In this document: piece by piece, positions 7,204 to 20,836 of the stretch
Position numbering within the stretch: position 1 is the first letter of the stretch
Layout: every line of letters starts with the position of its first letter
Source: Candidatus Methylopumilus planktonicus
GTDB lineage: Bacteria; Pseudomonadota; Gammaproteobacteria; Burkholderiales; Methylophilaceae
DNA: 32,000 nucleotides
Direction of reading: 5' to 3'
Assembly (NCBI RefSeq): GCF_006364715.1
Contig: NZ_CP040984.1
Location: forward strand, 421,446-453,445
The notes under the pieces: model-generated
Told to the model about the DNA's origin: nothing
What the model saw: only the letters and a program-made list of their open reading frames with translations
Database searches by the model: none
Position numbers and translations under genes: made by a program

Positions 7204-7290
7204 AGAAAAGAACATTTTACAGTATTTGTGGGGGTTGTAGAGGGGGTAGGATTGGGGATTTTGTTGGGGCTGGAATAGGGGTGTGTTAGG
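7166..7290 (-). repeat. repeat unit copy 1: tRNA-Lys positions 1-38 plus about 87 nt of G-rich (plus strand) leader
   Basis: Matches 8525-8650, 9298-9370 and 15515-15640 in direct orientation. All copies keep CAGAAA..ATTTTACAGTA next to the tRNA 5' end (TAAAAT on the tRNA strand, a likely -10). Confidence 0.85.
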
Positions 7291-7303
7291 AAATCACCAA
7301 TAG

Positions 7304-7333
7304 TTGACAACATTGGGGGGGGGTAGATATTAT
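7304..7333 (+). promoter_or_regulatory. sigma70-type promoter TTGACA-N18-TATTAT with a G9 homopolymer in the spacer
   Basis: TTGACA at 7304-7309, G9 at 7315-7323 and TATTAT at 7328-7333. It lies upstream of the 7410 HTH gene. Confidence 0.6.
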
Positions 7334-7364
7334 CTACATGCACTGTAAAAGTGCACATTGTGAT

Positions 7365-16959: not shown

Positions 16960-17391
16960 TAATTATTCCTTTTCAGTTATTAAGATTATGTTGAGTAGAT
17001 CAACATTGATAATCTATCCAAAAAGTATTTAAGATTTGTGACAGGACATTAATATTCACAGTAATTAGTTTTTTTTATAATTAAGTTATTGTAGAATTAA
17101 TTTTGTATCAGAAGTCTCCTTAAATAACCTTCGCGAACTTATTTAATAGCCCCTTCAATGGGGCTATGTCTTGTCTAATCTCTGCACATGAAAACACTTA
17201 AAACAATTCAAAAATTTATCTCTGATTATTTGCCACTAAAAATCTCAATAGAAAATATTAGATTTATTCTTATTTTTTTAATACTCTTATTTACAGCTTT
17301 GCTTTTGGCAGGCCTCATTGAATATAACAGTAAAAACTTCTGACGGTTGTTTCAAAAAGTCGTTTAAAACGAATTTTTTTGTCATCATTAA

Positions 17392-17484
17392 CTGACATAA
17401 ATATTTCATCATAATTTCACAATCAACAGATATTGTGTAAATGTTCTCCAAAGAATACTTGCCCTCGTAATGAGGGCTTTTTTT
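17392..17484 (+). promoter_or_regulatory. conserved 93-bp promoter/leader block ending in an intrinsic terminator (copy L2)
   Basis: Starts CTGACATAAATA and ends GCCCTC-GTAAT-GAGGGC-T7. It is 77/93 identical, ungapped, to 20239-20331. Confidence 0.6.
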
Positions 17485-17497
17485 ACTAGAAATATCT

Positions 17498-17764
17498 ATG
17501 AATAAACTTGAATACAATTGTGATCTACTAAAAACTACTCGCGAAAGCAAGAAGATTACAGCACATAGTATCGCCGTTGATATATGTTTAGCTGAGCGTC
17601 AGATTAAGTCTTTAGAAGAAAATAGTCTTCAATACTTTCCCTCTCAATCCATCAAATACACAGCTTTAAAAAAATATATAGCCGCACTGGGATTAAAAAT
17701 TGATGACGTTATCGTTAACATTAATCAAATTGATCCAATACCCAGCTTATTAAAGAAGAAATAA
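17498..17764 (+). CDS. RodZ-N-terminal-like HTH protein, paralog 2
   Basis: 88 aa and collinear with 7410..7676 (for example DICLAERQIKSLEENSLQYFPSQSIKYTALKKYIAALGLK). Confidence 0.7.
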   Translation: MNKLEYNCDLLKTTRESKKITAHSIAVDICLAERQIKSLEENSLQYFPSQSIKYTALKKYIAALGLKIDDVIVNINQIDPIPSLLKKK

Positions 17765-17768
17765 GCCT

Positions 17769-18179
17769 ATGAAATTTAAATATACAATTTTGCTTTTTGC
17801 ATGGGTTATAAGTTCTTCTTTATCCCATGCGTCTGATTTCGATTCCCTGTCAGAGCTTATTCAAAAAGGTAAGGAAACCGAAGCAATTGCAAAAATTAAT
17901 CGGTATATACAAAAATACCCAAACGACCCCAAGGTAAAATTTATTTATGGGGCAACCCTTGACCATTTTGGTAGGACACAAGAAGCCAAAAAAGTTTTTT
18001 TACATTTAAATCGTAAATACCCAAATAATCCTACTATTAAGAATAATCTTGGTGTTCTCTATGCAAAGCTGGGTGAATACAGTGCTGCTTATACTTTTTT
18101 TGGATCTGCCTTGAGATTGAAACCTAATTATCAAGAAGCTAAAAATAATCAATGGCTTGTTCAACAGAAGATTAACTAA
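17769..18179 (+). CDS. secreted TPR-repeat protein (variable middle gene of cassette 2)
   Basis: 136 aa with a signal peptide ending SLSHA. TPR-like repeats include NNLGVLYAKLGEYSAAYTFFGSALRLKPNYQEA. Confidence 0.7.
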   Translation: MKFKYTILLFAWVISSSLSHASDFDSLSELIQKGKETEAIAKINRYIQKYPNDPKVKFIYGATLDHFGRTQEAKKVFLHLNRKYPNNPTIKNNLGVLYAKLGEYSAAYTFFGSALRLKPNYQEAKNNQWLVQQKIN

Positions 18180-18186
18180 TTTTTAT

Positions 18187-18516
18187 ATGAGCCAAAAAGA
18201 TCCTGTATTTTTAAGTGTATGTGAATATATACAAGCTAATGTTAAATCTAAAATCACCATGTCAAATCTTGAGAGGTACGCTGCGCTTTCTGGAAGAGCT
18301 TTACAGTTAAAATTTAAGAAATATCTAAACAAAACACCCTTTCAATACATACAAGAACAAAAGATGTTAAAGGCGCATGAGTTAATTAAGGAATATCAAT
18401 GCTCTAAAACAATCTCAGAAATTGCTCTTGAATTAAAATTTAGCCATTTAGGAAGATTTTCTGTGAACTTCAAAAAAAGGTTTGGCATTTATCCTTCAGT
18501 TTTAGCTCGATCTTGA
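18187..18516 (+). CDS. stand-alone AraC/XylS-type HTH regulator, paralog 2
   Basis: ATG 18187 (MSQKDPVF...) gives 109 aa, the same length as paralog 1. The track start at 18157 overlaps the TPR gene. The last 70 nt are 68/70 identical to 8317-8386. Confidence 0.8.
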   Translation: MSQKDPVFLSVCEYIQANVKSKITMSNLERYAALSGRALQLKFKKYLNKTPFQYIQEQKMLKAHELIKEYQCSKTISEIALELKFSHLGRFSVNFKKRFGIYPSVLARS

Positions 18517-18924: not shown

Positions 18925-19299
18925 TTAGTTTTGTGTTGGTGGGTTTTTAGCTGGCGTAACTTTTTTTGGTCTTTTAGCCCTTGGTTTTGCCTTAGTGCTT
19001 GATTTTGTTTTAGCTTTGGCTTTCACTGGAGCCGCAACACTTAATTTTTTAGCAATACTACTAAGTGAAGTTGTTAATGATTTAGCAAGCCTTTCTGCTT
19101 CAGCTTTTCTTTTCTTTTGTGTCACTTTGTCACTACTCTTGATAGCGCTAATGGATGCTTTTTGCTGTGCTTGCATTTCTGCTCTTAGAAAAGCATCTAA
19201 CGCTTTAGCGATATTATTAACCTTCTTATTGTTAGAAGGTTTGGTTTTACTCTTTGTTGCTACGATCTTTTTGACTACTTTTTTTGAATTTTTTTTCAT
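18925..19299 (-). CDS. Lys/Ala-rich histone H1-like nucleoid-associated protein
   Basis: 124 aa with extreme K/A content and AKxK-type repeats (PVKAKAKTKSSTKAKPRAKRPKK). Confidence 0.55.
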   Translation of the reverse strand: MKKNSKKVVKKIVATKSKTKPSNNKKVNNIAKALDAFLRAEMQAQQKASISAIKSSDKVTQKKRKAEAERLAKSLTTSLSSIAKKLSVAAPVKAKAKTKSSTKAKPRAKRPKKVTPAKNPPTQN

Positions 19300-19431
19300 G
19301 TCTTACCCCCCAGAGGATAAAAAGTCTTTATTAATAAATGTCATACTAATGTCACAATAAAAGTGTAGGGAATATTTTATAAAAAAACAATATCCGCTTG
19401 CCACTTTTAAAGCACTAAATTTTAGACTTGA

Positions 19432-19538
19432 TTGACATAAATCAATCTCATTTGATAGAGTGCGGGTTCGTTTCATATACGTCTCTGTAGTACAGCATTC
19501 CAAGTTCGTATGCAGCCCCAGCAATGGGGCTTTTTTTT
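19432..19538 (+). promoter_or_regulatory. promoter TTGACATAAAT... plus about 75-nt leader ending in a strong intrinsic terminator (L4)
   Basis: TTGACA at 19432-19437, N18, then TAGAGT. The terminator is GCCCC-AGCAAT-GGGGC followed by T8 (19515-19538). It lies 73 nt upstream of the 19612 gene. Confidence 0.5.
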
Positions 19539-19611
19539 CGTCTGTAATATTGCCTTCATATTGAGTATTTAATATAGCTGAACACTAGAAAATATAACAA
19601 AGGTTTAAGGT

Positions 19612-20135: not shown

Positions 20136-20238
20136 TTCATTCTGCAATCAGTCAAAGAGATAAAAAATACTTTTTAGGCCAAAAAAACCCATTTAATGAC
20201 ATATGACGTTGAGAGTAGAATTGAGATGTATTTGATAG

Positions 20239-20331
20239 TTGACATAAATACTTCATCTCAAGGTCACAATCAATAGTTATTCTAGATTCGTTCTCCAAAG
20301 AATATTTGCCCTCGTAAAGAGGGCTTTTTTT
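20239..20331 (+). promoter_or_regulatory. conserved 93-bp promoter/leader/terminator block (copy L3)
   Basis: Starts TTGACATAAATA and ends GCCCTC-GTAAA-GAGGGC-T7. It is 77/93 identical to 17392-17484, and the mismatch within the terminator hairpin (position 80) falls in the loop. Confidence 0.6.
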
Positions 20332-20449
20332 CCCAAAGATTATGTCTCTAAAACATATATTACAAGGGGACGGTAGATCCAATAGTCCTTGTATTAACAA
20401 ACTCCAATACCTAGGCCTATTTAAGTAAAGAATTTCTTCTAACCTTATT

Positions 20450-20836
20450 TTGGTGTTTGATATCGATAATTTTGAATATAACTTTGAGCTTCTTAAAAAG
20501 ACGCGTGAAGATAAACAAATGAGCAAGCTCGAAATGGCTCATCAACTATGCTTATCTGTAAATCAAATTGATTCCATTGAAGAGAATAGCTTTAGATACT
20601 TTCCGGCAGAATCTATAAAGTTCGCAGCAGTCAAAAAATATGTATTAGCACTTAATTTGGATTTAGATCAGGTAATAATAAAAGAAGACGAGGTGGCTCC
20701 GCTTAATGCCCCCTCAACAGTTCCTTCATTACTCTCAAAAGAAAAAAATAAGATTAAAAAAGGCACTTACAGAAACAAAGCCAATGAATTAAGAAAAGCA
20801 TGGCAAGACTTGTTGCGTAGATTGCTTAAAAATTAA
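20450..20836 (+). CDS. RodZ-N-terminal-like HTH protein, paralog 3 (longer, basic C-terminal tail)
   Basis: 128 aa with a TTG/GTG start (20450/20453). DNFEYNFELLKKTRE...NQIDSIEENSFRYFPAESIKFAAVKKYVLALNL is collinear with paralogs 1 and 2. Confidence 0.65.
   Translation: MVFDIDNFEYNFELLKKTREDKQMSKLEMAHQLCLSVNQIDSIEENSFRYFPAESIKFAAVKKYVLALNLDLDQVIIKEDEVAPLNAPSTVPSLLSKEKNKIKKGTYRNKANELRKAWQDLLRRLLKN

Follow-up and report, generated by a model that had tools for sequence, protein, structure and literature searches.

A conserved non-coding block precedes regulator genes in a flexible island

The window analysed here is a 32,000-nt stretch of the Candidatus Methylopumilus planktonicus genome (contig NZ_CP040984.1, positions 421,446 to 453,445). 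The region corresponds to the published additive island fGI-2, which adjoins tRNA-Lys and some 80% of whose proteins lack an assigned function (PMC10872708). A 93-bp non-coding block occurs twice in the window, at 17392-17484 (copy A) and 20239-20331 (copy B), each time upstream of an HTH gene. Features at the two copies are listed below; promoter and transcript features are predictions.

17360-17380, plus strand: weak hairpin and T-run (TCGTT-taa-AACGA, A, T7) ending the upstream 51-aa ORF (17188-17343)
17392-17420, plus strand: copy A half-sites CTGACAT (17392-98), ATTTCAT (17403-09) and ATTTCAC (17414-20), 11-bp period; predicted Pho-box-like activator site
17431-17436, plus strand: copy A predicted -10, TATTGT, 10 bp past the third half-site
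17443-17484, plus strand: copy A predicted transcript of about 42 nt, with probable start near G17443, single-stranded CCAAAGAAUACUUG (17448-17461), hairpin GCCCUCG-uaa-UGAGGGC (17461-17477) and U7 (17478-17484)
17498-18516, plus strand: operon downstream of copy A, with an 88-aa HTH_25 protein (17498-17764), a 136-aa TPR protein (17769-18179) and an AraC-type HTH_18 protein (ORF 18157-18516)
20239-20267, plus strand: copy B half-sites TTGACAT (20239-45), ACTTCAT (20250-56, weak) and AGGTCAC (20261-67)
20278-20283, plus strand: copy B predicted -10, TATTCT, 10 bp past the third half-site
20290-20331, plus strand: copy B predicted transcript of about 42 nt, with CCAAAGAAUAUUUG (20295-20308), hairpin (20308-20324) and U7 (20325-20331)
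20450-20836, plus strand: 128-aa long HTH_25/HTH_19 paralog, 118 nt after the copy B T-run

Pairwise alignment within the window shows the two blocks to be identical at 77 of 93 positions without gaps, and the only difference within the terminator, T/A at block position 80, lies in the loop. The distance from the block end to the start codon is 13 nt in copy A (ATG at 17498) and 118 nt in copy B (TTG at 20450). The HTH_25 proteins downstream share only 47% identity, so that conservation of the non-coding block exceeds that of the genes behind it. On each of these points the alignment agrees with a sequence-only reading of the same DNA that preceded this analysis. An in-frame TGA (17471-17473) excludes a longer HTH ORF in copy A.

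Within the 1,301,023-bp genome, the sole significant BLAST match of copy A is copy B (E = 1.3e-22). Relatives were searched by BLAST and with a covariance model built from eight block copies: 4 of 18 congeneric species carry one or two copies each (G007, G008, G014 and G015), and none turned up in 140 further genomes of the family. Two weak covariance-model matches, in G018 and G014, were rejected as unrelated terminators. A pattern scan located the block on 48 freshwater or estuarine metagenome contigs and on no viral contig, giving 56 copies with 23 distinct sequences in total. Neither copy in the window matched an Rfam covariance model when the full window was scanned at E <= 1.

All copies lie in the island and are oriented like the next gene. 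Occurring at one or two copies per genome and, in the genomes searched, confined to the genus and the island, the block is therefore a lineage-restricted, island-bound element and not a dispersed repeat. A MITE or other mobile repeat was rejected on the same grounds and because the block ends carry no inverted repeats; the scattered repeat that the sequence-only reading had itself raised as a possible source of the similarity is not supported, given that the search returned no third copy in this genome and, among the family genomes searched, further copies in congeners only. A relic of the tRNA-Lys leader or attachment repeat was also rejected, since 7204-7300 shows no similarity to the block. 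Minus-strand ORFs span both copies in the same frame (17287-17550 and 20152-20526); they were rejected as coding because of a TGA in G008 and a +1 insertion in the loop of G008_b.

Conservation was measured on the eight copies from five genomes, which form an unbiased set; the metagenome copies had been retrieved by a pattern inside the repeat region. Mean pairwise identity is 0.71-0.94 over the repeats and their spacers, falls to 0.42 over columns 48-59 (the 12 nt after the -10, that is, the discriminator and the first bases predicted to be transcribed), and is 0.90 over CCAAAGAATATTTG. Conservation had previously been placed in the first 19 and last 42 nt; its concentration at both ends holds, and the conserved parts measure about 40 and 36 nt instead. 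This segment-wise pattern, with high repeats, a low discriminator and a high segment at the 5' end of the predicted RNA, agrees with a promoter that leads into a transcript.

The 5' part of the block resembles a Pho-box promoter

Every copy contains three 7-nt direct repeats with an 11-bp period. The TCAY core of the repeats is kept in all genome-derived copies, except in the first repeat of the two copies of this genome, which reads ACAT. Exactly 10 bp separate the third repeat from the predicted -10, which has the form TAnnnT in 21 of 21 scored variants: the T, A and final T are invariant, and positions 3-5 vary across seven hexamers (TATTGT, TATTCT, TATTTT, TAAAAT, TAAAGT, TAATGT and TAAGAT). 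TAnnnT is the signature of the sigma-70 -10 element. The would-be -35 position reads ATCATA or ATCTCA.

The sequence-only reading had taken TTGACA at the 5' edge as a sigma-70 -35 that starts a 60-70-nt RNA covering most of the block. Copy B does have a perfect TTGACA, and a third occurrence of TTGACATAAAT, at 19432, sits in a good promoter (TTGACA-18-TAGAGT). By chance alone, however, the window should contain that 11-mer 2.7 times, and the rest of the 19432 unit is unrelated to the block. Copy A reads CTGACA at the edge and the relatives read CCGTCA, CCATCA or CTGTCA, and no copy has a TAnnnT 16-18 bp downstream, so that a -35 at this position is not borne out and the arrangement as a whole seems to us very improbable. 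Two other promoter candidates were rejected: TTAACT-16-CATAAT, found in copy A by the promoter scanner, loses both hexamers in copy B and the relatives, and TTGTCA-17-TATTTC, upstream of the block, lacks the final T of the -10 and is absent from copy B and G015_b. An additional TTGTCAY motif lies at 17379-17385, 13 bp (not 11) upstream of the first half-site and thus out of phase with the repeats; it is found in two of the three upstream contexts described below. The sequence favours reading the conserved 5' part at the DNA level, as three Pho-box-type half-sites, over reading it as RNA.

The Pho-box consensus is CTGTCATAWAWCTGTCAY, and the box ends 10 bp before the -10. The 10-bp spacing is reproduced by the pstS promoter of this genome. 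Phosphorylated PhoB binds the direct repeats of Pho-box promoters, and strict spacing to the core promoter is needed (PMC10294691). We outlined the Pho regulon of this genome computationally, and the identities of the pstS, Porin_O_P, phoB and metallophosphoesterase genes were confirmed by Pfam. Loci are given in genome order.

C1 261020-261706: PhoB (TIGR02154, 351 bits against a cut-off of 296)
C1 261768, minus strand: phoB promoter, three perfect half-sites
C1 910856: ppk/ppx divergent region
C1 914351, minus strand: PAP2 phosphatase
C1 915085: metallophosphoesterase; promoter with four sites including GTGACAC and CTTTCAC, 10 bp, TTTAAT
C1 923192, minus strand: Porin_O_P gene; promoter TTGTCACATATGTGTCAT, 10 bp, TAAAAT
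C1 926637: pstS; promoter CTGTCATATATATGTCAC, 10 bp, TAGACT

Five of the six regulon loci cluster at 910-927 kb, and the pairing of PAP2 with metallophosphoesterase suggests lipid remodelling under phosphate stress. The 10-bp gap between box and -10 is common to the block and to the pstS, porin and metallophosphoesterase promoters. PhoB is one of only two OmpR-family regulators encoded, the other being OmpR-like.

A strict matrix was made from seven half-sites of the pstS, phoB and porin promoters only and scored over three consecutive 11-bp units. Among 2.6 million genome positions, copy A ranks 12 and copy B 27; the training loci fill the top, and the best positions outside them are metallophosphoesterase, the ppk/ppx intergenic region, one other site and then copy A. 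When the metallophosphoesterase sites were added (11-site matrix), copy A moved to rank 5 and copy B to rank 22. All variants from relatives score inside the top 4-22 of this genome. The middle half-site scores poorly (-5.7 to 6.5 bits) and the rank of copy B depends on sites 1 and 3; half-sites 2 and 3 mostly read TTCA, against GTCA in the consensus. At the sequence level, the block thus combines the repeats and the box-to--10 spacing of a Pho box in a genome that encodes PhoB. Its repeats are most likely a Pho-box-like site for a PhoB-type activator taking the place of a -35.

A regulator other than PhoB could nevertheless bind the repeats, either the OmpR-like protein or, by autoregulation, the HTH_25 or AraC protein of the cassette; the likeness to a Pho box would then reflect no more than a general OmpR/PhoB-family or AT-rich look. 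Sites 2 and 3 have an invariant TTCAY in place of GTCAY, as if selected for a non-PhoB consensus, the unit usually adjoins HTH/AraC cassettes, and CAAAGAATATTTG, an imperfect palindrome just past the predicted start, is a possible autorepressor site. The presumed Pho promoters of the genome, on the other hand, hold the same variants (GTGACAC, CTTTCAC, and TTTCACAAT upstream of the PAP2 gene) together with the same 10-bp gap, and the strict matrix, too, ranks the block high. Non-HTH genes are also found behind the unit, and CCAAAGAATATTTG occurs nowhere else in the genome, including the promoter of cassette copy 1. We therefore regard another regulator as improbable and keep to a PhoB-type site.

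A separate, near-perfect Pho box, ATGTCATACTAATGTCAC, lies at 19338-19355 and has the third-best two-site score of the genome. It is intergenic, between a minus-strand Lys-rich gene (18925-19299) and the TTGACA-18-TAGAGT unit with its terminator (19432-19540), and its 20-mer is identical on nine metagenome contigs. The hexamer 10 bp past it is TAGGGA, without the final T.

The 3' part encodes a predicted terminated transcript of about 42 nt

The start of transcription was placed about 7 nt after the -10, at G17443 in copy A and G20290 in copy B. A terminator scan identifies a canonical intrinsic terminator at the end of the block (GCCCTCG-loop-GAGGGC followed by T7), and the predicted folds have energies of -13.1 kcal/mol (z = -3.85) for copy A and -13.9 kcal/mol (z = -3.90) for copy B. 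No part of the transcript is better conserved (0.90) than the 14-nt segment CCAAAGAAUAUUUG, which is predicted to be unpaired near the 5' end. A short terminated transcript or leader, as proposed by the sequence-only reading, is still the best interpretation, and its -35, RNA length and antiterminator have to be revised. The only conserved -10 candidate (17431-17436 and 20278-20283) gives an RNA of about 42 nt and not 60-70 nt. Nor does the proposed GUUCUC:GAGGGC antiterminator hold: it maps to the segment that varies most, and G008_b, G015_a, G015_b and G007 have lost the pairing. The stem hardly varies and so offers no covariation support. The G014 species-representative copy (L031 7596-7688) has a decayed hairpin, ACCTTC...GAGAGC; the metagenome relatives of G014 type (L051 and L072) keep GCCCTC...GAGGGC and have a better -10, TAAAAT.

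Among the block copies compared there is no conserved antiterminator, leader peptide or covarying helix. A candidate leader peptide, xFSKEYLPS*, ending in the hairpin loop was rejected because its start codon is not conserved. Long-range pairing of AAAUAUUU with GAAUAUUU and an ACAAU/AUUGU hairpin were rejected because substitutions break the pairs without compensation, and a repeated operator was rejected because CCAAAGAATATTTG is present in the genome only within the two blocks.

Hfq is encoded in the genome. Targets were sought by genome-wide complement matching and by duplex energy over 1,322 translation start regions, and none exceeded what shuffled seeds achieve. The best duplex match, at C1 339661 (minus strand), belongs to a 103-aa protein of KPAAKK(K/R) repeats (Lys/Ala) and reaches -16.4 kcal/mol, with shuffled seeds reaching -19; there, ATTCTTTGGAG over the ribosome-binding site has 11-12 nt complementary to the predicted RNA 5' end.

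The unit recombines as one module between contexts

The flanks of all copies were sorted. Upstream, the copies fall into three unrelated contexts: the end of the tRNA-Lys repeat with a TCCGGAATCCGGA-T5 hairpin, the 51-aa ORF with another hairpin (copy A), and a position after two zinc-finger mini-genes (copy B). The TCCGGAATCCGGA-T5 hairpin of other copies differs from that of copy A and stands at the same place. Since these separate upstream hairpins already stop transcription, the terminator of the unit would serve the unit's own transcript. Directly after the T-run, five unrelated contexts are found.

13 nt, then the ATG of a short HTH gene: copy A, both G008 copies, G015_b and many metagenome contigs
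118 nt with a decayed poly-G-spacer promoter, then a long HTH gene: copy B
Intact TTGACA-N18(G9)-TATTAT promoter, leader, then an HTH gene: G015_a and L067
Another promoter and a 117-aa secreted protein: G014 type
About 180 nt, then a 427-aa gene: G007

The operon of copy A, which begins 13 nt past the T-run, lacks its own promoter. In copy B, the decayed promoter in the 118-nt spacer is ATTACAAGGGGACGGTAGATCC, recognised by comparison with 7305-7335. Two of the five downstream contexts have their own sigma-70 promoter, and two lead to non-HTH genes. Core types and contexts are mixed: L042 has a B-type core in the 13-nt context and L065 a G008-type core in the 118-nt context. Homology between contexts stops at the T-run. 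The unit accordingly spans the first repeat to the T-run, its boundaries coinciding with recombination boundaries, and these boundaries are as expected if promoter plus transcript form the functional unit. It recombines as one module between contexts. That the unit is independent of the ORF behind it, as the sequence-only reading had proposed, is strengthened by these comparative data.

Cassette copy 1 (7283-7300) has the flanks of G015_a without the unit. Compared with L030 6320-6460, it lacks the unit of about 137 bp (hairpin plus block) that G015 has there, and AG/AAAA at both junctions of this comparison suggests gain or loss via microhomology.

Such mosaic recombination between cassettes is frequent, and it could be argued that the block is a non-functional relic, a duplicated intergenic piece homogenised by gene conversion between island cassettes; the decayed hairpin of the G014 copy would agree with this. 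Conservation of the block is, however, patterned by segment and not uniform, TAnnnT is kept across the seven hexamers, and the block persists in five species and 23 variants, with hairpins intact in the G014-type relatives. We find a relic hardly credible in view of this pattern.

A second alternative is that the unit acts only in cis, as the promoter and 5' leader of the downstream genes. The hairpin and U7 would then form a constitutive or protein-controlled attenuator that keeps the regulators low, and the short RNA would be a by-product. An HTH gene exactly 13 nt past the T-run and no other promoter (in copy A, both G008 copies, G015_b and many metagenome contigs) is what such an arrangement would look like, and the lack of a significant trans target is in keeping with it. 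A plain attenuator, however, leaves the 0.90 conservation of a 14-nt unpaired segment unexplained; neither an alternative pairing nor a leader peptide is conserved; and a leader would serve no purpose in three downstream contexts, where the unit is followed by a separate promoter or by long spacers with unrelated genes. A purely cis function is in our view unlikely, if less so than a different regulator at the repeats.

A proposed PhoB-activated small RNA that may double as a leaky leader

Our best composite explanation, held with moderate confidence, is that the block is a self-contained, portable transcription unit whose small RNA is activated by PhoB and doubles as a leaky leader. When phosphate is limiting, phosphorylated PhoB would bind the three repeats and bring in RNA polymerase; the first transcribed base would lie near 17443 in copy A and near 20290 in copy B, and the GC hairpin with U7 would end most transcripts after about 42 nt. 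Such a product would be laid out like a base-pairing sRNA of the Hfq type: its conserved 5' segment is predicted to be unpaired, A and U dominate the stretch ahead of the hairpin, and the 3' end is a U-tail. In the 13-nt contexts, read-through of the terminator would supply the mRNA of the HTH-TPR-AraC operon; since the operon has no promoter of its own there, the unit would also be a phosphate-responsive attenuated leader in these contexts. A terminator about 20 nt past the start of a promoter that also feeds an operon, with no conserved antiterminator, is awkward for this proposal.

A more specific version can be put forward only tentatively, as a possibility that we would not ourselves expect to hold: a gene for an Hfq-type sRNA of about 42 nt, activated by PhoB and recombining at the heads of fGI-2 cassettes, which acts in trans and, via leaky termination, as the only promoter of HTH-AraC operons. 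If true, it would be among the shortest stand-alone bacterial sRNA genes, and phosphate scarcity would activate functions of the island that are specific to individual strains.

Ca. Methylopumilus, an abundant freshwater methylotroph with a streamlined genome, is a dominant bacterium of lakes, where growth is often limited by phosphorus. A unit apparently driven by a Pho box before island regulator cassettes would connect the flexible gene pool to phosphate limitation in a concrete way that can be tested, and the second canonical Pho box, at 19338, strengthens this connection. The analysis also provides a first computational outline of the Pho regulon for this organism, with pstS, phoB, an OprO/P-type porin, ppk/ppx, metallophosphoesterase and PAP2 genes. 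Should the RNA exist, it would represent an unusually small, mobile sRNA family absent from Rfam.

Comparison with known systems

Like Pho-box promoters such as those of E. coli pstS and phoA, the block has 7-nt direct repeats with an 11-bp period, A/T-rich 4-nt spacers and 10 bp to TAnnnT, and no -35. It differs from them in having TTCA in sites 2 and 3, in having three half-sites and not two or four, and in driving a predicted terminated RNA of about 42 nt and not a phosphate-acquisition gene.

OmrA/OmrB-like sRNAs are Hfq-type RNAs activated by OmpR-family regulators. The block shares with them a response-regulator promoter (predicted here), a conserved 5' seed and a terminator combined with a variable part, and duplication in one genome. 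Its RNA would be about half as long, and the variable part lies before the start site and not inside the RNA.

Small RNAs under a phosphate two-component regulator, as predicted for the block, have been described elsewhere. EsrL was reported to be bound by PhoB in enteropathogenic E. coli, a finding that ChIP-seq in K-12 did not confirm (PMC10294691); in Bacillus, PhoS is stimulated by PhoP and encoded in the 3' UTR of phoPR (PMC11522486). The block has no sequence relationship to either; it stands alone, is much shorter, and lies in a flexible island directly before regulator genes.

Terminator attenuators, for instance the Thr, Trp and Leu leaders of Rfam, likewise place an intrinsic terminator between promoter and first ORF, as in copy A, where it ends 13 nt before the ATG. 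In contrast to them, the block conserves neither an antiterminator nor the start of a leader peptide, leaves about 20 nt before the hairpin, and also occurs where it is not a leader. On these comparisons, we would file the block as a putative regulator-dependent small-RNA or leader gene, unusual in its tiny size and in behaving as a recombining module in a flexible island.
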